From sequence record OP795442: a stretch of DNA of 64,000 bases. One strand, written 5' to 3'. The notes beneath the pieces are model-generated. The model was not told the DNA's origin. It made no database searches and saw only the letters and a program-made list of their open reading frames with translations. Made by a program: the position numbers and the translations under genes. Origin of the DNA: Escherichia phage A7_1. Shown piece by piece: positions 3,676-58,164 of the stretch (position 1 is the first letter of the stretch; each line of letters starts with the position of its first letter).

Positions 3676-4769
3676 TGATTAAGACCCTTATAGAGAAAGG
3701 TCGCCAGATTAAATCTCGCGGAATTGCTCTAACTCACCGAGATCAAGGCTACAGTGCGAATAACCGCCACGTAAGCCTCCTCACTAAATCTGACATTGAC
3801 CCTAGCAAACTTACGGTTGATGTTATCAAAGCCCTTGAGCAAGTTCAAGTAACTATCAGTATGGAAGAGTTTTTACGTCGCTTCTTCCACATGTATTGTG
3901 ATGATGCTGAGTTACTTACTAAGCTGCTGGGCTTCACAACTACCTTCGAAGACGAATATGCTGATAAAGATCCTGAAGACTTGGATTCTTATACGGCTGA
4001 TTACATCCGTCGTCATCAAGAATATCTCGATGAGAAGCTTGAAACAATCACTATCATCAAGAAAGCAAAAGAAGGTGCTGACCTTTCTCTCGTTGAACGC
4101 TTCGAGTTAATTAAGACTCGCAAGCAGTTTGAAGACGGATGTAAAGAATTGGGCCTTGACTTTGGTGACAATTCAGAATTACGCAAACCAGAAACTGGTG
4201 AAGTAGTTAAATCAGCTACTAAGCCTGAACCTGTAAGCTCCGCTGGAGCGACCACAACCATCAAGGAGACTCCTGTGGAAAAAGAAGTAGATGTAACCAA
4301 GTCCCAACAATTCATTGATCTGATGAAAGCTAATGAAGCGTTGATGGCTCAGGTTGAAGGTATGAAAGAAACCTTCACCGCTGCTCAAGAAATCGTTAAA
4401 GCTCAGGCTGTTGCAAAACGTGAAGTTGCCTTGAACAAAGCTGCAAGTTTTGGTTTTGTTGCTGATGACCAACGTGAAGCTGTTGCTGACCTGATCGAAG
4501 ACCCAGCTAAAGCATCTGTTGTTGCTGTGCTGGAAAAAGCTGCTGCTGCTCTTAAAGAGAAAGACGAAGCTCTCGTCGCTAAAGATGCAGAAATCGAAGA
4601 GATCAAAAAATCCTTCGCTGACGGCAAAGAAGTAGGTGCTGATGGTCAACTGACTGAAGTTGCTAAAGGCTCTGAAGACGCTCAGGCTCGTTTGAACCGA
4701 GTAATCGCAGAACGTGCAGCAGAGATCGCTAAGGCTGCTAACGGCAATGCTGAATTTATTAACGCCTAA
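3675..4769 (+). CDS. scaffolding protein
   Basis: 364 aa, Ala/Glu/Lys-rich with helical low-complexity C-terminal half; start overlaps upstream stop (ATGA); lies just upstream of capsid genes. Confidence 0.6.
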   Translation: MIKTLIEKGRQIKSRGIALTHRDQGYSANNRHVSLLTKSDIDPSKLTVDVIKALEQVQVTISMEEFLRRFFHMYCDDAELLTKLLGFTTTFEDEYADKDPEDLDSYTADYIRRHQEYLDEKLETITIIKKAKEGADLSLVERFELIKTRKQFEDGCKELGLDFGDNSELRKPETGEVVKSATKPEPVSSAGATTTIKETPVEKEVDVTKSQQFIDLMKANEALMAQVEGMKETFTAAQEIVKAQAVAKREVALNKAASFGFVADDQREAVADLIEDPAKASVVAVLEKAAAALKEKDEALVAKDAEIEEIKKSFADGKEVGADGQLTEVAKGSEDAQARLNRVIAERAAEIAKAANGNAEFINA

Positions 4770-24149: not shown

Positions 24150-24155
24150 CCTCAA

Positions 24156-24183
24156 GGGAGCCTCGTGCTCCCTTTTCTTTTAA
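24156..24183 (+). terminator. rho-independent terminator
   Basis: GGGAGC-CTCGT-GCTCCC followed by TTTTCTTTT. Confidence 0.7.
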
Positions 24184-26388: not shown

Positions 26389-28023
26389 ATGGCTAGACCA
26401 ACAACACCGATTGTTGTCTTTGCGGCACAAGATGTTAACCTTCCTGGTACTGGAAGACCTAACAAATCAAAACCGATTGATGACCTTTTAGCAAAGGGCT
26501 ATGACAAAGGGCAAAAACCAGCGGCAGAAGAATTCAACTATATTCTTCACCAGTCTGGTGCTTGGCTTAATTGGATCGTAGAAGAGAAGTTTCCAGAGGT
26601 TGAAGAAGAATACAAGCGACTGATTCAGGAACTCGAAACACGAGTAAACAATCAACTGGAAGTTATTCGTGAAGATGTTGCGAACGTAAGACAATCTGTT
26701 GCAACCTTAAGAACTTATGTAGAGCAGACTGTTGCAGATCTTCGTCGTGAGATCACTGCGGTTGATCAGCGTGTTACTCGTTTGTCTCAAGACTTGGATA
26801 ATGCTGTTTCCAGATTGAACGCACGTATTGATGAACTTGAACCCCGTTTAGTCCCTATTGGTGCAATATTGACTTGGGCTGGTCAGGTCCCTCCTGCGGG
26901 ATTCTTAGAGTGTAATGGTCAGGTATTTAGTACATCACAGAACCCGAAACTATATGAGGTTCTGGGAAGAAACGTGGTGCCTGATTATCGTGGACTCTTC
27001 CTTCGTGGGTGGGCACATGGTTCTGGTGCTTATGATCCAGATTCTGGTCGTGGGTTAGGTTCTATACAAGGGGATGCAATTAGAAACATTACCGGAAACA
27101 TGGGTTGGGAAAGTATCCGTACTGACCACGGATATCGCCAATCTGGTGCGCTTTATACTCAAGTTAACTCTTATGCTGGACCAGACCATGACGGTGGAAA
27201 CCCTGCTGGCGACATTAAGTTCGATGCAAGCCGAGTAGTTCCTACCGCACCGGAAAACAGACCTAAGAACGTCGCGGTAATGTATATTATCAAGACTGAC
27301 CAAGCTCAAGGGACAGGGAGTTTATCTCCTACTGCGCTTGTTACGACACCAGATAGCATTACTAACCGTGTTGGATTTACTCGTGGAATTTCTGCACAGG
27401 TACTTCCTGCCAACTTAGCAAGTCAATACCCTGTAACTTGGACCTCTCAAAATGGTAACGTTGCAACGGTAGATAGTGCGGGTAACGTAAGACTGACTGG
27501 CCCAGGTGAGACAAACATTATAGCTTCTATCGCTACTGGAATCTCGGCTCAAATTAAGATAGTTTCGTACACAGCCCTGAGTGCCGTTTCTATTGGGACA
27601 ATACCGAGTATACAGGTGAACAGATCTGAACTGATCCCTGTGAATAAAACACCTGCGAACTCTAACGAACCACTTGAATATTCTAGTAGTAATTCTAACG
27701 TAGCTGTCGTGACTCAAAGCGGGTATGTTTCTGGTGTTGCTCCAGGTACTGCTGTTATTACTGTTCGTGGATCTATTACAGGTATCCAAGCAACGAGACA
27801 AGTTACAGTTATTCCAGCCGTAATTGTTCAAACTATCGAAGATGTTCGTTTAGGTATTGAGCAACAAACCACTATGAATGGTGATAACTATACCACCCCT
27901 GTTCGTGCTCCGGCAGGATGTGTTATTACTGGTGTTGTTTCAGCGGGACTTGGATTAAACCAAGGTTATTACAAGCCAATCCAGAAGCGTATGTCTGGCG
28001 TATGGGTAACGGTAGAGGGCTAA
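26389..28023 (+). CDS. tail fiber protein (tail-collar domain plus Ig-like repeats)
   Basis: 544 aa; N-terminal coiled coil; motif AILTWAGQVPPAGFLECNGQ...YRGLFLRGW typical of phage tail-collar fiber domains; C-terminal Ig-like beta repeats. Confidence 0.7.
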   Translation: MARPTTPIVVFAAQDVNLPGTGRPNKSKPIDDLLAKGYDKGQKPAAEEFNYILHQSGAWLNWIVEEKFPEVEEEYKRLIQELETRVNNQLEVIREDVANVRQSVATLRTYVEQTVADLRREITAVDQRVTRLSQDLDNAVSRLNARIDELEPRLVPIGAILTWAGQVPPAGFLECNGQVFSTSQNPKLYEVLGRNVVPDYRGLFLRGWAHGSGAYDPDSGRGLGSIQGDAIRNITGNMGWESIRTDHGYRQSGALYTQVNSYAGPDHDGGNPAGDIKFDASRVVPTAPENRPKNVAVMYIIKTDQAQGTGSLSPTALVTTPDSITNRVGFTRGISAQVLPANLASQYPVTWTSQNGNVATVDSAGNVRLTGPGETNIIASIATGISAQIKIVSYTALSAVSIGTIPSIQVNRSELIPVNKTPANSNEPLEYSSSNSNVAVVTQSGYVSGVAPGTAVITVRGSITGIQATRQVTVIPAVIVQTIEDVRLGIEQQTTMNGDNYTTPVRAPAGCVITGVVSAGLGLNQGYYKPIQKRMSGVWVTVEG

Positions 28024-28025
28024 TT

Positions 28026-28538
28026 ATGAGAATGAATAACTTCAAGCTTTATACACCGGAAGTTAAAGCTTTTGGAGAGGGTGTTCAGTATTTTCAGGAC
28101 GATAAAGGTCGTGATTTCTACGACTCTCGTGAACTGTTCAAAAAGAAATATGTTGTTTTCTTTGATGAACATAGCATTGTCCGTGGCTGGGCAAAGAGTG
28201 AAGAGGTTACCCGTCTTCACCCAGGTGGTTTGTCTGTTGTGGACCTTAATACACTCCCCAAAGATTTTTCTTTGCAAGGTGGTGTTTGGTCATTCAACGG
28301 TAAACAGGTAGTTAAGGCAGATTATGACCCTGCTTTTAGCACCGCTGCAAGAAAGGCTGGCATTCTGCAAGTGATCGGTTCTGTTATCGTCCCGCTTCAG
28401 GATGCTGTTGAATTGGGAGATGCTACAGACGATGAGCTTGAGAGATATAACGATCTTCGCAAGATGAGAGTTAAAGTCATGCGTATCCCTGATAGCACCT
28501 CCCCTGGTGATATCGACTGGTCAGAGTTCACCTTTTAA
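28026..28538 (+). CDS. tail fiber assembly chaperone
   Basis: ATG at 28026 right after the fiber stop; 170 aa starting MRMNNFKLYTPEV, resembling Tfa-type chaperones. The longer track ORF from 27918 is an overlapping extension. Confidence 0.6.
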   Translation: MRMNNFKLYTPEVKAFGEGVQYFQDDKGRDFYDSRELFKKKYVVFFDEHSIVRGWAKSEEVTRLHPGGLSVVDLNTLPKDFSLQGGVWSFNGKQVVKADYDPAFSTAARKAGILQVIGSVIVPLQDAVELGDATDDELERYNDLRKMRVKVMRIPDSTSPGDIDWSEFTF

Positions 28539-28577
28539 CCTTAGATAAGTCGGGCTTCGGCCCGACTATGGAGACTT

Positions 28578-28910
28578 ATGATTGTTGATATAATGGCAGT
28601 TCTGAAAGCACTTTGGGGTCTTTTAACATTCATTTTGCTGGGTGCACTAAAGATCTTTTACACCGACTTTAAAAAATTAGAGTCACGTCAAAGTGAGCTT
28701 GAAAAAGATGTTCTTCGTTTGAAGGAATCTGCGGTTACTAAGGATAGTATCGATGCCATTCTTGACCGTAAGATAAAGCATATCACTGATACGATTCAAG
28801 ATATCAGGACCGATATCACAGATATGCGAAAGGAAGCGAAAGAAGAAAACCACGCTCTACAGAAAGATATTCGAGAGTTACTAAACAAAATTATTGAGAA
28901 CCGCAAATGA
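28578..28910 (+). CDS. membrane-anchored coiled-coil protein
   Basis: 110 aa; N-terminal hydrophobic helix then charged coiled coil; ATGA overlap with the next gene. Confidence 0.5.
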   Translation: MIVDIMAVLKALWGLLTFILLGALKIFYTDFKKLESRQSELEKDVLRLKESAVTKDSIDAILDRKIKHITDTIQDIRTDITDMRKEAKEENHALQKDIRELLNKIIENRK

Positions 28911-29365
28911 TTACAGCCATAATATATGGCATTTGTTTCGTAATCCTTGCTACTCGAAAAGAGAGTGGAACAAAGATAATGGCTGGGCTTTGCCTAGCCT
29001 ATCTCGTATTGGAGAACCTGATCCTTTGGTTCTTCTCTACGCAACAATATTTCGACATCACTCTTTATTTTAATGTTCTCTGGACATTGGATTCGATACT
29101 GCTTTTCACTATGGGTTGTACAGTGAAAGGATTACGACAAAAACTTATCGTATGCCTAAGTATTCCGTTCATGCTTATTCAAGTGTTTGCAATCCAATAT
29201 CCAGAATTGTTCCCCTTATGGGTTTACGAATTCGCTCTTAGAGACGCTCACAAATATTTCATAGAAACCTTTGTGTTCGTTTATTCTTGGAAGGATAATA
29301 CCGTACCGGAATGGATAAGAACAGCAGTAGTGATATTTCTAGTGCTCATTGCCCACATGGTATGA
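28907..29365 (+). CDS. polytopic membrane protein
   Basis: 152 aa with at least 4 hydrophobic segments. Confidence 0.5.
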   Translation: MITAIIYGICFVILATRKESGTKIMAGLCLAYLVLENLILWFFSTQQYFDITLYFNVLWTLDSILLFTMGCTVKGLRQKLIVCLSIPFMLIQVFAIQYPELFPLWVYEFALRDAHKYFIETFVFVYSWKDNTVPEWIRTAVVIFLVLIAHMV

Positions 29366-29387
29366 ACATTGATAATGAAGGTGATCT

Positions 29388-29648
29388 ATGTTAAAATTTC
29401 TCAAAGACCTAGTGACCTCTGCGGTGGAACCAGATAAAGCTTCTCATACGAAGTTTTGGTCTAACGTAGGTATGGCTGCTATGACTGCCGTCTTTCTCTG
29501 GTATGGATTCAACAATACATTGCCTGAATGGTACGTATGGCTTTATGCCCCTACGGTAGTGGCCCCACACCTGTTGAGTGACCTCATCAACCTCCGTTGG
29601 GGATTATCTTTGAAAAAAGATAAAGACCCTTCCGACGAAAACAAGTAA
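29388..29648 (+). CDS. small membrane protein (two hydrophobic segments)
   Basis: 86 aa; hydrophobic segments MAAMTAVFLWYGF and WYVWLYAPTVVAPHLL; charged C-terminus. Confidence 0.5.
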   Translation: MLKFLKDLVTSAVEPDKASHTKFWSNVGMAAMTAVFLWYGFNNTLPEWYVWLYAPTVVAPHLLSDLINLRWGLSLKKDKDPSDENK

Positions 29649-29660
29649 GAGGAGAAAACT

Positions 29661-32600
29661 GTGTCGTCTAATACTGATATATTGGCACTGGTAAGCACTG
29701 AAGCAGACCTCGCTGTTGATCAGATCATCGAAGACTCTCGAAGACTTCATTTGATCGTCAACGGAACTGCAACAGAACAAGCTGTTACAGAAGATGGTAG
29801 CTTAATTCCTAGTGTACGTAAAGCGATAATTGATAACTTTTATTTTAAAACTCCACCGTTACCGTGGAGAAATGGAAGTTCAGTTATTGAATTCAATCAG
29901 TTGTATGCCTTTACTGATGTAAATGGCAACGTAACTTGGTGGTATGCCCCAGGTGCAACCAGCAGTACCCCTGTCGTTATGCGAGATAGTCCAATCAACG
30001 ACGGGAAGTTTAGACCTTTCTTCGATAAAGGTAACATTCAAGAAACTTACGCCCCTATCCTTTCCCCTGTCTTCCGTGGAAACCCTACCGTACCCCTTGC
30101 TGCTGAAGGCGATAGCTCATTTACTATCGCGAACACCGCTTGGGTTAGCCGAGAAATAGAAAAAGTACGTGGTGAGGTTCTTGAAGAATCCAGAGGTGAA
30201 TTCCAAAACATTATCGTTGCAGATGATGCGAGTCTGAAAGATCTCTATGTAAGTGGAGAAACCATCTTTACTGGTGATAGGATCGCTGCTCTTGATGCCG
30301 AGTTATCTTTAAAAAGATTACGAATGACAGGTACAGGCGCAGAAATCGCATTTGAACAAAATGGTGTTCCACCCCAAGCAGGATTAACAAAAAGAACAAA
30401 TATCAAACCTTTCCAAGTCACCACTGGGGTTGTTGATACAGATAATATAACTGCGAGAGAGATCAAGGTTGGAAATACCTCTGTTTCCACGAATTCCCTC
30501 GATGTTGATGGATTCATGCAAGGTGACTATCTTCACTTACAGGGTAATGCCAACAACGCAGAAGACCGCCCACAACTGATCGTTGACGGTGTTGCGGAAA
30601 TAAATACTCTTCGTGTGACGAACACCATTGAAGGATTGAAGGCTGACGTTGAAGGTCTGGATATTAATCCTAACAGTATTGTGGTTGAAAGAACTGCGGA
30701 GATCAAGGGAAATACAACCCTTGGTGCAGATCTTTCCGTTTCTGGCAATACCGTATTGAAAGATGTACGCATCGATGGTACTCTTACTGGCGCGGGAATC
30801 GGCGTTGATGGTAAAGATATCTCTCCTCGTAACGTGAGTGCAACATCCGTAACAGTTGCAGAGAATTTAAATATCACAGGTCCAACTAATGCTTCCGGCG
30901 ATGTTACAGTAAACAACCTCACTGTTAACGGGACACTTAGAGCAGATATCGATTTTGGAACAAGTGCTGTTGAATTTCAAGATTTAACTGTAACCAATAG
31001 AGCTACGATTAAAGATCTTGAGATCACGGGCAACGTTACAGGTTTTACTCCCTCTGTTGATGGAGAAGCAATATCCCCTTCATCTGTGACAACGACAGGG
31101 AACATTGATGTTGGAAACAATCTACGTGTCCGTGGCGATCTTAGCCTAGATGGTGAATTGAGCCTTCCAAGCTTAGATACTGGAGATATCTCCGCTGCTG
31201 AAATTGACGCTGCAAGTCTTTCGGTTAGTGGTGACATTACCGCAGGGACAACCTCGACTACAACGGTTAATAATCTTGTGGTAACAGGAACCACTACAGG
31301 AATCACTGTAACGGGCAATGTTGATGGACAAGACATTCTCCCATCGTCGGTAGAAACAACGTCTGTAGAAGCTTCTGAGAGCGTTACAACGGCAAACCTG
31401 ACAGCCACTGGAGAAACTCAGGTAAATAACCTGACAATCACGGGAACTGTAACAGGTTTTGAAGTAGACCTCACTGGGCGGGACATTCAGGTTAATACCC
31501 TGACGGTTACTCGTGGATCAACTTTTGACGAGGTTACTGCTAATAACATAACCAACAATCAAAAGATTACTACGGTAGATCTTCAGGTAACTGGAAACCT
31601 GACAAATGCCAATGGTGAGCAATTCTTTGCAAACGTCACTGGTCAAGACATTCTTCCAAATAGTGTGCAGTCTGCAACGTCTGTGAGAACTAAAACGCTA
31701 CGTGTCGAAGAGACTAGCCTCTTGGAAGGTGCTGTTACCTTAAATGATGGTTTGACTATCACCGCTGGTAATATCACATCTGTTCAAGGTCAAGCAAGCT
31801 TCAATGACGTACAGGTATTTGGATCTCTTCTGGACGCGAATGGTAATGCCTTAGGGACAGCGGAAAGCATAAACGGTAAAGATATCTCTCCCCGTAGCGT
31901 AACCGCTCAAGTTGAGATTCAGACTACTGCAATTGTTGCTACAGGTCAAGCTGAAGTTGGTTCTTTGATTTCAACTGGACAAGTAACGGCAGGAAGCTTA
32001 GAGGTTTCAGGGATAGGCAACATTGATCAAGTCATCACCGATGATATCCGTGCTGGTAAAGTGACTTCCGGTAACACTGTTATCACTCGCACTGTCGGGT
32101 CTAATGACCCCGCTCTTGAAGTTCGTGGACCAGGTGAGATTCAGGGCGACCTTAATGTAACCGGAACTGTAACTGGTAACATCGATCTTAGCTCTCAGGA
32201 CGTTAACGTTGCTTCTATGACCTCAACGGGAACAGTAAATGCCCTTTCCATTGAGTCTCGTACATCGGTAACTGGATTATCTGGTACATTCGGTGAAGAT
32301 TATGAAGGTGCACCTACATACGGGATAACTTCTCTTTCCGGCGCAAACATCAACAAGAACCTTCGAGTTGGTGGAAACCTGACTGTTGTTGGTAACATCT
32401 CTGGCAATATCGACTTGTCTGGAAAGGCGATCGAGCCTGCATCTTTGTCTACCACGACAGCTACGTTAACGACGGCGAACATAACAGACCTGACTGTAAC
32501 TGGTCAGTTTAATATCCCGACTGTACCGTTAAATGTTCAATCCCTTAGTTCTGAAAACGCTATTTCCGCAAGCAAGTTCAGCACCACACCAAAAGAAGTA

Positions 32601-32894
32601 AGCACCACCTCTTCTTCTTATATCCCAGACGGCTCAACGAGCATATATAACGTAAACGTTATAAATGATGTTGAAGTGAAAGCGCCGATTGGCCTGTTGA
32701 GTTCAGGAAAAGGTGAGTCAGTATTCCTCTTCTTTGAACAGGATGGTACTGGTGGACATGCGGTAACATTCGGATCGGAGTTTGTTGTGCACGGTACTGA
32801 AACCATCAACACAGATGCAAACACTGTATCGGTAGTTAACATGGTTTATCGTGGCAAAGGCCCATTGATTGACGTATTCATCACTCGTCGCTAA
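29661..32894 (+). CDS. large tail fiber / tailspike protein with internal repeats
   Basis: 1077 aa, GTG start after AGAGGAG; about 8 repeats containing 'G.DI.P.SV', Thr/Asn/Val-rich as in beta-helical fibers; terminator follows. Confidence 0.7.
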   Translation: MSSNTDILALVSTEADLAVDQIIEDSRRLHLIVNGTATEQAVTEDGSLIPSVRKAIIDNFYFKTPPLPWRNGSSVIEFNQLYAFTDVNGNVTWWYAPGATSSTPVVMRDSPINDGKFRPFFDKGNIQETYAPILSPVFRGNPTVPLAAEGDSSFTIANTAWVSREIEKVRGEVLEESRGEFQNIIVADDASLKDLYVSGETIFTGDRIAALDAELSLKRLRMTGTGAEIAFEQNGVPPQAGLTKRTNIKPFQVTTGVVDTDNITAREIKVGNTSVSTNSLDVDGFMQGDYLHLQGNANNAEDRPQLIVDGVAEINTLRVTNTIEGLKADVEGLDINPNSIVVERTAEIKGNTTLGADLSVSGNTVLKDVRIDGTLTGAGIGVDGKDISPRNVSATSVTVAENLNITGPTNASGDVTVNNLTVNGTLRADIDFGTSAVEFQDLTVTNRATIKDLEITGNVTGFTPSVDGEAISPSSVTTTGNIDVGNNLRVRGDLSLDGELSLPSLDTGDISAAEIDAASLSVSGDITAGTTSTTTVNNLVVTGTTTGITVTGNVDGQDILPSSVETTSVEASESVTTANLTATGETQVNNLTITGTVTGFEVDLTGRDIQVNTLTVTRGSTFDEVTANNITNNQKITTVDLQVTGNLTNANGEQFFANVTGQDILPNSVQSATSVRTKTLRVEETSLLEGAVTLNDGLTITAGNITSVQGQASFNDVQVFGSLLDANGNALGTAESINGKDISPRSVTAQVEIQTTAIVATGQAEVGSLISTGQVTAGSLEVSGIGNIDQVITDDIRAGKVTSGNTVITRTVGSNDPALEVRGPGEIQGDLNVTGTVTGNIDLSSQDVNVASMTSTGTVNALSIESRTSVTGLSGTFGEDYEGAPTYGITSLSGANINKNLRVGGNLTVVGNISGNIDLSGKAIEPASLSTTTATLTTANITDLTVTGQFNIPTVPLNVQSLSSENAISASKFSTTPKEVSTTSSSYIPDGSTSIYNVNVINDVEVKAPIGLLSSGKGESVFLFFEQDGTGGHAVTFGSEFVVHGTETINTDANTVSVVNMVYRGKGPLIDVFITRR

Positions 32895-32896
32895 TA

Positions 32897-32923
32897 GAGG
32901 CCCTTCGGGGCCTTTTCTTTTTA
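32897..32923 (+). terminator. rho-independent terminator
   Basis: AGGCCC-TTCG-GGGCCT followed by TTTCTTTTT. Confidence 0.7.
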
Positions 32924-32933
32924 GGAGGACAAC

Positions 32934-34169
32934 ATGATCCCTTTTCCAATTATTAATTTCGGTGGCGGTGTTCCACTACCTGTAGGCGTTACAATCAAGT
33001 ATGCAGTAAGTACCAGCACCGGAAATATTTTTATTCTGCTTACCAATGGGCATCTATATGTAACCGGATCTAATTATCTAAACGGGCTTGGTAAAACAGG
33101 GACCACAAATAATGCAACTTCGGGATGGTCACTTACTAACACAGGTGTTGAAGAAGTTTATGAGGTAGGAACAGAAAGTACACTGTACGGCGGTGTGTGG
33201 GTTAAGAAAAATAATAACCACTATGAATATATCTCTGCTGTAGTCTTTCCCGCTGTTGACACAACTCTCCAAAACAGTTGGAACGTCTTGCCTGAATCCG
33301 CATACATCGTTGGTGGTGTAAATATCTTATCTTCAGCAATACAAATAGCCAGATCATACGCGATCCAACCCGACGGCACTGTTTACAGACTGCTTCCAGA
33401 GGGGCCGCAAGTAGCTTGGCCTGAAAAAACAAAATACCTGTATTTTGCAAACTATAATGCTATTCGTGTCGAGGTGGATGGGACTTTAAAATACCGAGGC
33501 GACAATGGTGTAGATCAAGTGGCAGGCACTTCTGCCGGAACAACATTATCAACTTGGACAACCATCGGGGATTCTTCTGTAAGGTATATTAGGGCAAAAT
33601 GTGCTCGTGGTCAAGTGGCTAACACGAGTGGCGGTTCAGGTGCTCAATCTATTGTACTTGTTGTTGCACAGAGGGAAGATGGGTCATGGGATGCAGTTGG
33701 ATCGGCAGCAAGAGCAGGGATAAACTCAACCAACGTCCTCGGTCCTAATTTAGCACCTATGACAAGCATACCTGCGGGGGTTGAAGTTTATGTCACCAAC
33801 CAGATCAGCTATACAAACGCAAGTGTGAGCACAAGGGCAGCACTGCAAGTATTCATCTCTGACAGGGTTAATGGCATCTATCAATCAACGGGTGGACAAG
33901 GGGGATACACCTATTCTTTATTTAGGAATCTTCCTATAACCACCAACGCAACATCTTTCGAGAACATATCCGAAGATATTATAAACGATGGCGGTATCCT
34001 CAACATGACAGGTTCATTATCCGACACTTTCAAAGTGATTGTTAGTGGTAATGGTAATCTTTACTGGACAGGGAGAGGTTACACAGGGGCTATGTACCCT
34101 GCTGACTTTACGGCCTCTAATACGATAGCTCAGAAGTTTAACTTGGAAGGTATAGTTATTCCAGCATAA
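32934..34169 (+). CDS. hypothetical tail fiber-associated protein (last late gene)
   Basis: 411 aa, AGGAGG RBS, Gly/Thr/Asn-rich; last plus-strand gene before the convergent terminator. Confidence 0.55.
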   Translation: MIPFPIINFGGGVPLPVGVTIKYAVSTSTGNIFILLTNGHLYVTGSNYLNGLGKTGTTNNATSGWSLTNTGVEEVYEVGTESTLYGGVWVKKNNNHYEYISAVVFPAVDTTLQNSWNVLPESAYIVGGVNILSSAIQIARSYAIQPDGTVYRLLPEGPQVAWPEKTKYLYFANYNAIRVEVDGTLKYRGDNGVDQVAGTSAGTTLSTWTTIGDSSVRYIRAKCARGQVANTSGGSGAQSIVLVVAQREDGSWDAVGSAARAGINSTNVLGPNLAPMTSIPAGVEVYVTNQISYTNASVSTRAALQVFISDRVNGIYQSTGGQGGYTYSLFRNLPITTNATSFENISEDIINDGGILNMTGSLSDTFKVIVSGNGNLYWTGRGYTGAMYPADFTASNTIAQKFNLEGIVIPA

Positions 34170-34170
34170 A

Positions 34171-34206
34171 GAAAAGGCGCTCAAATGAGCGCCTTTATTT
34201 TTATCT
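34171..34206. terminator. bidirectional terminator between convergent modules
   Basis: AAAGGCGCTC-AAAT-GAGCGCCTTT hairpin flanked by an A-tract upstream and ATTTTTAT downstream; sits between plus-strand stop 34169 and minus-strand stop 34218. Confidence 0.75.
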
Positions 34207-57281: not shown

Positions 57282-57492
57282 TATTTAGTTCCTCATATTC
57301 ATATGGGTAGAGTAGATATCCTTTGTTGTCTTTTAGTGCTACGGCTATAACACTCTCAAGGTAAAAATCATCATCATAGTGAATTTCTTCAATTACAAGA
57401 ATATCACCTTTCTTTGGATGGTCATCGCGATCACTGAAATCATTTAGTAGCTTTATTTTTACGTTTTTCATATAACATCTCCGCTGCCACAA
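57274..57492 (-). CDS. hypothetical small acidic protein
   Basis: 72 aa; overlaps the helicase start by 8 nt. Confidence 0.4.
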   Translation of the reverse strand: MWQRRCYMKNVKIKLLNDFSDRDDHPKKGDILVIEEIHYDDDFYLESVIAVALKDNKGYLLYPYEYEELNND

Positions 57493-57652
57493 GGGTTAAG
57501 ATCATTGCCATATACATTACAATAGAGGTCACACTGATTTGAATGAATAGTTCATCAGTAACATGATTGAAGTAAACATTCTTTACATATCGAACCCCTA
57601 TAAGCCAAAATGCCATCACCACAGCAAATGTTAGTATCATACGTTTTATCAT
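57440..57652 (-). CDS. putative holin (two hydrophobic segments)
   Basis: 70 aa with two hydrophobic helices and Lys-rich C-terminus; start overlaps the endolysin stop (ATGA). Confidence 0.45.
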   Translation of the reverse strand: MIKRMILTFAVVMAFWLIGVRYVKNVYFNHVTDELFIQISVTSIVMYMAMILTLVAAEMLYEKRKNKATK

Positions 57653-58164
57653 TTCTTCTTCTCCTCTTTGTCTTTATAAAAGATGTGATTTTCTATGGTT
57701 ACTGTTCTTTTTAGAAGTTTACGCCAAACGGGTTTAACCTTCTTCGTATGATAATACAGAGATCCATATGTCGGGTCAAACCTTTTGTACAAAATCTCGT
57801 TATTTTTTAGCTTATGTACGAATTTTGATATACTAAGAGCACCCTCCCAAGAATCTTTATCTGTTATATTATAGGAAGATTTGGTTAGTGTCCACGAGAA
57901 CTGAGAGGCTTGATACACAACACCCTTCATAGTGGTTGGGAACTTATCATGCTTCATACGATTCATAGTTACGAATGCAACAGCCATTTGACCATTGACC
58001 GTTTCTCCTCTCGCTTCCATATAAACATTGCAAGCTAAGGCATTAATAGAGTTATCCTTTTTAGTGCATTTGTGGATAACTTTCTGTGCTCTCTCTTTGG
58101 CATAAGTAACGCCTGGTGCCAGAGACAGAGTACAAATAAAACTATATAATACTAATTTCTTCAT
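57649..58164 (-). CDS. endolysin, SleB-type cell wall hydrolase with N-terminal signal peptide
   Basis: 171 aa; N-terminal MKKLVLYSFICTLSLAPGVTYA resembles a Sec signal; NVYMEARGE and QFSW motifs characteristic of the SleB / cell-wall hydrolase family. Confidence 0.65.
   Translation of the reverse strand: MKKLVLYSFICTLSLAPGVTYAKERAQKVIHKCTKKDNSINALACNVYMEARGETVNGQMAVAFVTMNRMKHDKFPTTMKGVVYQASQFSWTLTKSSYNITDKDSWEGALSISKFVHKLKNNEILYKRFDPTYGSLYYHTKKVKPVWRKLLKRTVTIENHIFYKDKEEKKK

Follow-up and report, generated by a model that had tools for sequence, protein, structure and literature searches.

A Conserved Trio of Membrane-Protein Genes Between the Tail Fiber Genes of Escherichia Phage A7_1: Candidates for Lysis Control

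Three small genes, here designated A, B, and C, lie between tail fiber genes in the 64,000-nt stretch of Escherichia phage A7_1 DNA (OP795442) that was analyzed (the window). Homology, synteny, and predicted topology, on which all functional assignments below are based, make it somewhat probable that they form a late-expressed lysis-control module, in which C would be a holin-type protein, A a releasin- or antiholin-like partner, and B an accessory. By sequence comparison, C belongs to a family that appears to occupy the holin slot of Mu-like lysis cassettes, between the endolysin and Rz/Rz1 genes; A has profile similarity to a second family linked to these cassettes.

Myophages of the rV5, PVP-SE1, phiTE, and phi92 types are widely used in therapy and biocontrol, but their holin or lysis-timing gene has never yet been identified. 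In the rV5 paper no homologue of a holin could be detected, and gp129 was put forward as a guess; according to the LL12 paper, the holin of the group “could not be positively identified”; and the holin proposals in the rV5 and CB7 papers are based on topology only. C (rV5 gp29, PVP-SE1 gp42, phi92 gp144) and its partner A are conserved candidates for this role, and are tied here to an unrecognized holin-slot family, phrog_1322, in the Mu-like phages, where releasins were discovered. If the assignment is true, hundreds of annotations now reading “membrane protein” or “hypothetical,” or otherwise mislabeled, would be corrected, and the pattern known from T4 and T7, with a holin following the fiber genes, would be extended.

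Gene C and the Holin Slot of Mu-like Lysis Cassettes

C matches phrog_1322 (E 1.3e-29, residues 1–83 of 86); scans against Pfam, NCBIfam, and PADLOC gave nothing. A profile made from its close relatives, searched against 1.84 billion representative proteins (E ≤ 1e-3), returned 90 clusters, and all of those tested (81/81) were phrog_1322. Relatives within this family share the motif SHTK(L/F)W(A/S)N, the second helix, and the sequence ...SKFLSL(K/R)YG, and alignment of the close and distant sets with hhalign gave a probability of 99.6% (E 1.4e-24, 77 columns). In the other direction, tblastn from a cassette member reached PVP-SE1 gp42 at E 2e-5 and the Aeromonas C proteins at E 1e-6.

A scan of IMG/VR with 20 of the 81 distant sequences found 80 loci, 68 of them non-identical, many on contigs of 35–50 kb with Mor/GemA-type genes. 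Their surroundings are often those of lysis cassettes. The upstream neighbor is a peptidoglycan hydrolase in 29 of the 47 cases called (13 VanY/M15, seven amidase_2, and the rest GH19, M15, CHAP, GH108, and amidase_3, with “endolysin” and “amidase” dominating the PHROG labels); the downstream neighbor is an Rz-like spanin in roughly 25–30 of the 61 called. Two isolated phages illustrate the arrangement: late activator, endolysin (ORF26), C-family gene (ORF27, “membrane protein”), and Rz (ORF28) in Ralstonia phage RS138; and Mor, M15 peptidase, C-like gene, and Rz in Pseudomonas phage Bise. Each Rz has an Rz1 lipobox open reading frame (ORF) embedded in it, and neither endolysin has a transmembrane domain (TMD), so that a hole-former should be needed.

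RS138 ORF27 and its Bise counterpart are annotated merely as “membrane protein” or “hypothetical protein,” and were compared with C by sequence family. They resemble it in belonging to phrog_1322, in the SHTK(L/F)W(A/S)N motif, followed by two helices of weak hydrophobicity and then a hydrophilic tail, in size (75–100 aa), and in expected late expression. They differ in location: there the gene is flanked by endolysin and Rz/Rz1, whereas C is flanked by fiber genes, with hydrolase and spanins elsewhere. A cassette location, as expected of a holin, is thus found for the remote homologues; C itself, in the window, is 28 kb from the gene for a SleB-like hydrolase.

In outline C is also built like a holin, as a small membrane protein with a charged C-terminus, at weak hydrophobicity and low model confidence. 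Its AlphaFold2 model is a helical hairpin (helices 20–41 and 47–70) with a predicted local distance difference test score (pLDDT) of 58, the best 19-residue Kyte-Doolittle mean is 1.11, and earlier annotators found zero or one TMD. The predicted orientation is N-in/C-in, and the tail (residues 69–86) has five basic and four acidic residues. An earlier note on this DNA, made from the sequence by itself, had called C a two-helix membrane protein: the hairpin is indeed predicted, while the membrane nature is plausible but, in view of the hydrophobicity and pLDDT, not certain. Taken with the cassette homologues, these features make C a holin-family candidate.

Two further observations concern this family. 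In two of the Mu-like loci (L102, 5818–6177; L127, 5827–6186), a gene for a three-TMD protein of 119 aa comes after the C-like gene and Rz. A possible relation to DUF2644 (PF10841), suggested by a source name and one precomputed match, was considered and set aside as a faint lead only: hmmscan was empty for C and its close relatives, four of the 81 remote relatives matched (best E 2e-4), and no mention of DUF2644 was found in the literature.

Gene A and the Post-Spanin Family

A has one segment of strong hydrophobicity, at the N-terminus (Kyte-Doolittle 2.09), and the rest of the protein is helical and charged, in agreement with its earlier description as a transmembrane-plus-coiled-coil protein. 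It matches phrog_5345 (E 1.3e-35); Pfam, NCBIfam, and PADLOC scans yielded only coiled-coil noise (best PADLOC E 0.023, on the coiled coil). By the positive-inside rule, from which the topologies of both A and C were predicted, about four N-terminal residues would be outside, with a TMD at about residues 5–24 and a cytoplasmic coiled-coil domain of some 85 aa. There is one acidic and no basic residue in the N-terminal flank, MIVD, against four basic and two acidic in the 15 residues following the TMD, and the A homologues of rV5, phi92, PVP-SE1, and the Aeromonas phages have the same asymmetry. The predicted arrangement (one N-terminal TMD, N-out/C-in, cytoplasmic C-terminal domain) is that of a releasin.

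In 20 of the loci with distant C relatives, a family whose members have a TMD at the N-terminus plus a coiled coil, here named muCC, is found zero to two genes after Rz; its motif is DFWxLVG...LPxxYxxREDxIR...KLDAL. Aligned by hhalign, the A family and muCC gave a probability of 89% and a score of 40.5; the 74 aligned columns take in the TMD and the conserved ELEK...VTKDxID region. As controls, the reversed alignment scored 19.5, 100 column shuffles at most 17.1, and six i-spanin families 9–19, all with probabilities of ≤3%. A hidden Markov model search of all ORFs in the fetched loci with the A profile found no cassette proteins, and the link between A and muCC comes from the profile-profile comparison only. 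In nine further loci the muCC position is taken by proteins of the DUF2730 (Mu gp25) type.

Mu gp25, a DUF2730 protein, is a releasin of 99 aa with N-out/C-in topology and four periplasmic residues, needed to free the signal-anchor-release (SAR) endolysin gp22; in Mu-like phages, some of them with cytoplasmic endolysins, the genes of DUF2730 members are no more than five genes away from that of the endolysin (Chamblee et al., 2022; PMC9239132). A is likewise about 100 aa long, with about four periplasmic residues, a TMD oriented N-out/C-in, and some 75–85 aa of helical cytoplasmic domain; its relatives hold the same cassette position, a few genes after the spanins; and A7_1 also encodes a hydrolase starting with MKK and a weakly hydrophobic segment. 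The two differ in the charge of the cytoplasmic domain, which is balanced in A (20 basic and 19 acidic residues) and predominantly anionic in gp25 (PMC9239132), and in that A has no endolysin gene near it within the window and is accompanied by a holin-type gene, while Mu has no holin.

Rz-type i-spanins also combine an N-terminal TMD with a coiled coil, and A has weak PHROG spanin matches (E ~2e-3), but from the distribution of its charges the coiled coil is predicted to be cytoplasmic, opposite to the i-spanin topology. There is no lipobox ORF in or beside A, and hhalign probabilities to six Rz families are ≤1.8%; an i-spanin assignment was rejected. A is instead a candidate for a lysis regulator, either releasin-like or antiholin-like, on the strength of its predicted topology and profile similarity.

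Gene B

B is a polytopic inner-membrane protein translationally coupled to A, with which it overlaps by ATGA. The earlier polytopic assignment is borne out by an AlphaFold2 model (pLDDT 82, predicted template modeling score 0.70) with six to seven helices, including residues 2–15, 20–44, 51–72, 76–97, 104–127, and 133–151. It matches phrog_7451 (E 1.4e-61); no match was found in the sets of Pfam, NCBIfam, and PADLOC searched, and no specific fold match to the model. Homologues of B carry a precomputed PF26221 assignment, a family outside the Pfam set searched. B is found only in large myophages and is missing from the rV5- and phi92-type phages, which suggests an accessory role. Previously unannotated 146-aa polytopic homologues were found in Aeromonas phages 2L372X (L009, 5514–5954; E 2e-33) and PAc (L010, 5468–5908; E 1.6e-16), in gaps of about 500 bp in the GenBank annotation.

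A Possible Lysis-Control Module

If the products of A, B, and C control lysis, they would do so as a non-virion inner-membrane module transcribed late with the tail fiber genes. C, as an N-in/C-in hairpin with a charged tail, would build up in the inner membrane late in infection and at a set time permeabilize or depolarize it. A, as a membrane-tethered cytoplasmic coiled coil, would modulate this event as an antiholin-like partner, or alternatively might help a signal- or SAR-type SleB-like hydrolase to leave the membrane. B, whose translation is coupled to that of A and which phages of the rV5 and phi92 types do without, would be an accessory membrane partner. The earlier note's suggestion of an accessory lysis function pointed in the right direction, given the C homologues and A relatives inside Mu-like lysis cassettes.

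The hydrolase in question (Table 1) has an N-terminus, MKK followed by a weakly hydrophobic segment, whose sequence would be compatible with a signal peptide or SAR-like anchor, and the protein is likely a secreted endolysin, the one whose action would be under the control of a holin or releasin. Its homologue CB7_83 is toxic when expressed, and CR3_087 has been linked to lysis (PMC7344957). Overlapping it is the gene for a 70-aa protein that is a rival holin candidate; by tblastn this is found solely in the five closest relatives, and its evolution is thus rapid, a common trait of holins. Its positional analogue CB7_82 has been proposed as a class II holin (PMC7344957). The presence of this pair at 57440–58164 had been used as an argument against a main-holin role for any of the three genes, but this carries little weight: the group has its lysis genes dispersed (PMC7344957, PMC6658697), and its holin has not yet been assigned. 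The spanin pair of the group, for instance, adjoins the terminase large subunit gene (TerL), as in T7 (PMC7344957, PMC6658697).

There are precedents for a holin gene directly after tail fiber or fiber chaperone genes, in T4 (genes 37, 38, t) and T7 (genes 17, 17.5), and these holins likewise have no cassette location. T4 t and T7 gp17.5 resemble C in being in a late operon, after fiber genes, with endolysin and spanin genes elsewhere; in T7 the likeness extends to the spanins, which are beside terminase genes as in the Vequintavirinae (PMC7344957). The T4 holin T differs from C in having one TMD and a large periplasmic domain. Homology between C and the T7 holin was also looked for; at an hhalign probability of about 9–10% (9.7%) and a score of 19.9, where column shuffles reached 18.1, it is not convincing, and is kept as a lead.

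Several points weigh against control of lysis by A, B, and C. On the side of C, its helices are weakly hydrophobic and its model is of low confidence; it is far from the hydrolase gene, which adjoins the more holin-looking gene with two TMDs; and it is conserved far beyond what is usual for holins, so that it may bind a conserved partner instead of simply forming holes. No record or library examined names phrog_1322 a holin; some Mu-like cassettes may hold a second holin-type protein, in which case the C family there may be either the holin or its regulator. On the side of A, the link to the cassettes is one profile-profile comparison of proteins with a TMD and a coiled coil, and a sequence relation to Mu gp25 is not significant, with no Pfam match to DUF2730 (PF10805) at E ≤ 0.1 and an hhalign probability of 2.4% to a nine-member DUF2730-like set. 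No counterpart of B was found in any Mu-like lysis cassette. Finally, the linkage of A to the fiber chaperone, independent of lineage, is unexplained by a pure lysis role.

Conservation and Synteny: A Role in Fiber Assembly?

By tblastn, the phage records with a match number 373 for C, 219 for A, and 106 for B. Either the whole trio or just A and C are present in the tail fiber cluster of all Vequintavirinae genera examined, of phi92/phAPEC8-type phages, and of Aeromonas Plateaulakevirus; the last is outside both subfamilies, yet keeps the order fiber, chaperone, A, B, C. The order fiber–chaperone–A–B–C–fiber is common to phiTE (236–241), CB7 (31–36), and PVP-SE1 (46–41). In rV5, which lacks B, it is fiber (gp33), chaperone (gp32), A (gp31), fiber (gp30), C (gp29), and fiber (gp28); in phi92 and ESCO13, C is upstream of the wedge gene and A downstream of the chaperone (C is gp144 and A is gp149 in phi92). 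Gene A is 3′ of the fiber chaperone gene in every lineage examined.

This synteny is the chief attraction of the main rival explanation, that A, B, and C are membrane-anchored assembly factors for tail fibers or baseplate, with the coiled coil of A and the ends of C tethering or organizing fiber trimerization or attachment at the inner membrane, together with the chaperone. A keeps its place after the chaperone in Vequintavirinae, phi92/phAPEC8-type, and Aeromonas phages, including those in which C is located elsewhere, and C always abuts a fiber or wedge gene, its stop codon overlapping or directly abutting the wedge start in ESCO13 and phi92. The soluble parts are predicted to be cytoplasmic, where fibers fold; the three proteins are missing from virions, as is the chaperone; and C is about as conserved as baseplate proteins. 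Even so, we regard an assembly role as unlikely. In the Mu-like phages, the C homologues and A relatives sit between or after endolysin and spanin genes and before terminase, not among tail genes, and profile searches gave no similarity to tail proteins. To our knowledge, there is no integral-membrane fiber chaperone.

The two functions could conceivably be joined, in a checkpoint that couples lysis timing to completion of the adsorption apparatus: the coiled coil of A would sense or bind unassembled fiber or chaperone, and hold C (with B) inactive until the fibers are done. In a milder version, large virulent myophages would also use a releasin-type mechanism to control a secreted or SAR endolysin. 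Such control is so far known only in Mu-like phages, and we consider either version a speculative and quite improbable extension of the lysis-control module.

Among the homologues there are a number of misleading names. Those of A and B have been called “ATP synthase subunit b,” “putative serine protease,” “septal ring factor EnvC,” “tail fiber protein” (in several rV5-like phages), and “lipoprotein” (phi92 gp149 and the ESCO13 A homologue). In Stenotrophomonas phage Moby (MN095772; L175, ~3995–4210) an unannotated C-family ORF runs on the opposite strand to CPT_Moby_033, which may be annotated on the wrong strand, and ends at an annotated terminator; tblastn found this type of C match in 16 Stenotrophomonas phage records.

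Composition and Selection: A Foreign Insert?

At the level of base composition, the three genes are within or near the range of their neighbors. G+C content at third codon positions (GC3) is 0.36 for A, 0.41 for B, and 0.48 for C, compared to 0.37 ± 0.05 for neighboring structural genes; codon adaptation is 0.71, 0.63, and 0.64, respectively, compared to 0.70 ± 0.05. Where overall GC is low, in A and B, this stems from codon positions 1 and 2, and is therefore caused by amino acid composition. Codon changes relative to phage UPEC06 number 28 synonymous and one non-synonymous for A, B, and C together, and 184:37 and 179:36 for the flanking fiber genes: A, B, and C are under strong purifying selection.

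The earlier note had suggested that the trio is a moron-like insert, possibly for superinfection exclusion. Sporadic presence, foreign composition, and a promoter and terminator of its own would mark such an insert, and none of these was found; conservation in place in at least three deep lineages, native GC3 and codon usage, the lack of an above-chance promoter, and purifying selection all speak instead for an old conserved gene set. The genes are thus conserved as part of the core tail operon of related phages, with A–B–C (or A and C) kept in place, but no structural role has been demonstrated for them, and the proteins look non-structural.

As an explanation of function, an accessory gene set for superinfection exclusion or host takeover, in the manner of T4 Imm/Sp or HK97 gp15, also appears very improbable. 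These are small inner-membrane proteins, PHROGs places phrog_1322 under “moron, auxiliary metabolic gene and host takeover” (labeled only “membrane protein”), and HK97 gp15 is an exclusion gene inside a tail operon. Besides being syntenic across subfamilies and host genera and native in composition, however, the trio has no terminator ahead of it, belongs to strictly virulent phages, and is within a late structural operon, whereas exclusion acts early. The PADLOC defense library gave no meaningful match, leaving superinfection exclusion unsupported, and conservation largely refutes the idea.

Absence from Virions

A, B, and C appear to be non-structural. Homologues were not found among virion proteins in mass spectrometry (MS; tandem, MS/MS, for CB7) data for CB7 and rV5 or in cryo-electron microscopy (cryo-EM) of phiTE and phi92, as judged from literature and annotation. 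In the CB7 GenBank notes, CB7_29, 30, 31, 36, and 37 are “MS/MS confirmed,” while CB7_32 (the chaperone) and CB7_33–35 (membrane proteins) are not; the rV5 gene table has no MS evidence for gp29 and gp31; and the whole-virion cryo-EM papers for phi92 (2026) and phiTE (2025) list baseplate and fiber components and never name homologues of A, B, or C.

Mass spectrometry easily misses small hydrophobic proteins, and a C homologue is labeled “conserved phage structural protein” in phage Paula, but that label is a BLAST transfer from phi92 gp144, a “membrane protein” in RefSeq, and with no assignment in the cryo-EM maps and homologues in lysis cassettes, the notion that these are low-copy virion or ejection proteins entering the host inner membrane during DNA delivery can be given next to no credence.

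Transcription Signals and the Upstream Hairpin

The 18 promoter-like sites found are not above chance (21.9 ± 4.6 expected). Between 24154–24174 and the terminator following the long fiber gene (Table 1) there are no above-chance promoter-like sites and no strong-stem terminator-like site; that terminator (eight pairs, five of them G-C) is the first strong-stem site of this sort 3′ of the trio. Late expression of A, B, and C would follow from their position inside the structural operon.

A hairpin separates the chaperone stop codon from the ribosome-binding site of A, GGAG (28571–28574), about two bases 5′ of the latter. Its sequence is AGTCGGGC-TTCG-GCCCGACT, or AGTCGGGC-UUCG-GCCCGACU as RNA. 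In a 71-nt context the predicted energy is -18.2 kcal/mol (z = -2.0), a stability equaled in 8 of 200 shuffles. The earlier note had placed it at 28550–28568; the hairpin and its lack of a U-tract are as described there, but the position is off by 1–2 nt. With no U-tract and no listing in the terminator scan, it was rejected as a terminator. Judging from its form and location, it probably serves in mRNA stability or processing, or else as a partial attenuator, and sets off the downstream genes.

The hairpin is unchanged in phages A5-4 and UPEC06, and phiTE and CB7 have a different GC-rich hairpin at the same junction. None was found at the chaperone/A junction in PVP-SE1, rV5, phi92, or the Aeromonas phages, and phages in which the two genes abut have no junction hairpin.

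Genomic Context

A7_1 is a coliphage of the rV5/PVP-SE1 type. The window has 99.6% DNA identity to Escherichia phage A5-4, and is 92–96% identical to W70, A73, LTH01, and UPEC06, unclassified Vequintavirinae with genomes of about 140 kb. Its first position falls inside TerL, and structural genes on the + strand run to about 34.2 kb, where a 10-bp bidirectional terminator (34173–34196) marks their junction with genes on the - strand.

Table 1. Positions of the A, B, and C genes and other features in the window.
Feature	Position	Strand	Remarks
Short tail fiber	26389–28023	+	phrog_12846, E 2e-227; Collar and Big_2 domains
Tail fiber assembly chaperone	28026–28538	+	PF02413 Caudo_TAP, E 3e-11; phrog_136, E 2e-39
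Hairpin with C(UUCG)G tetraloop	28548–28567	+	8-bp GC-rich stem; from sequence and fold
Gene A	28578–28910	+	110 aa
Gene B	28907–29365	+	152 aa
Gene C	29388–29648	+	86 aa
Long tail fiber	29661–32894	+	1077 aa; phrog_4549, E 2e-249
Intrinsic terminator	32896–32915	+	UUCG loop and U-tract; directly 3′ of long fiber gene
70-aa protein	57440–57652	-	Two strong TMDs, basic C-terminus; overlaps hydrolase gene; rival holin candidate
SleB-like cell-wall hydrolase	57649–58164	-	TIGR02869, E 8.7e-18

The three ORFs are present on the + strand exactly where the earlier note had placed them, and correspond to annotated coding sequences of A5-4 and UPEC06; its identification of the flanking short fiber, chaperone, and long fiber is confirmed by the profile matches. 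The long fiber start codon is 12 nt past the C stop codon. Homologues of both fibers, CB7_31 (short) and CB7_36 (long), are MS/MS-confirmed in the CB7 GenBank notes, the former in virions.

Following the long fiber and its terminator is a gene for a 411-aa protein (32934–34169; phrog_15692) whose N-terminus is weakly similar to an RCC1-like PHROG family. Its CB7 homologue is MS/MS-confirmed as structural, and it may be the third fiber-like component of the phiTE cryo-EM study. Divergence from UPEC06 is 15.7% for the short fiber and 7.2% for the long fiber, with A, B, and C in between at 0.9–5.7%, a pattern suggestive of receptor-binding modules being swapped, in mosaic fashion, on either side of a core that is conserved.

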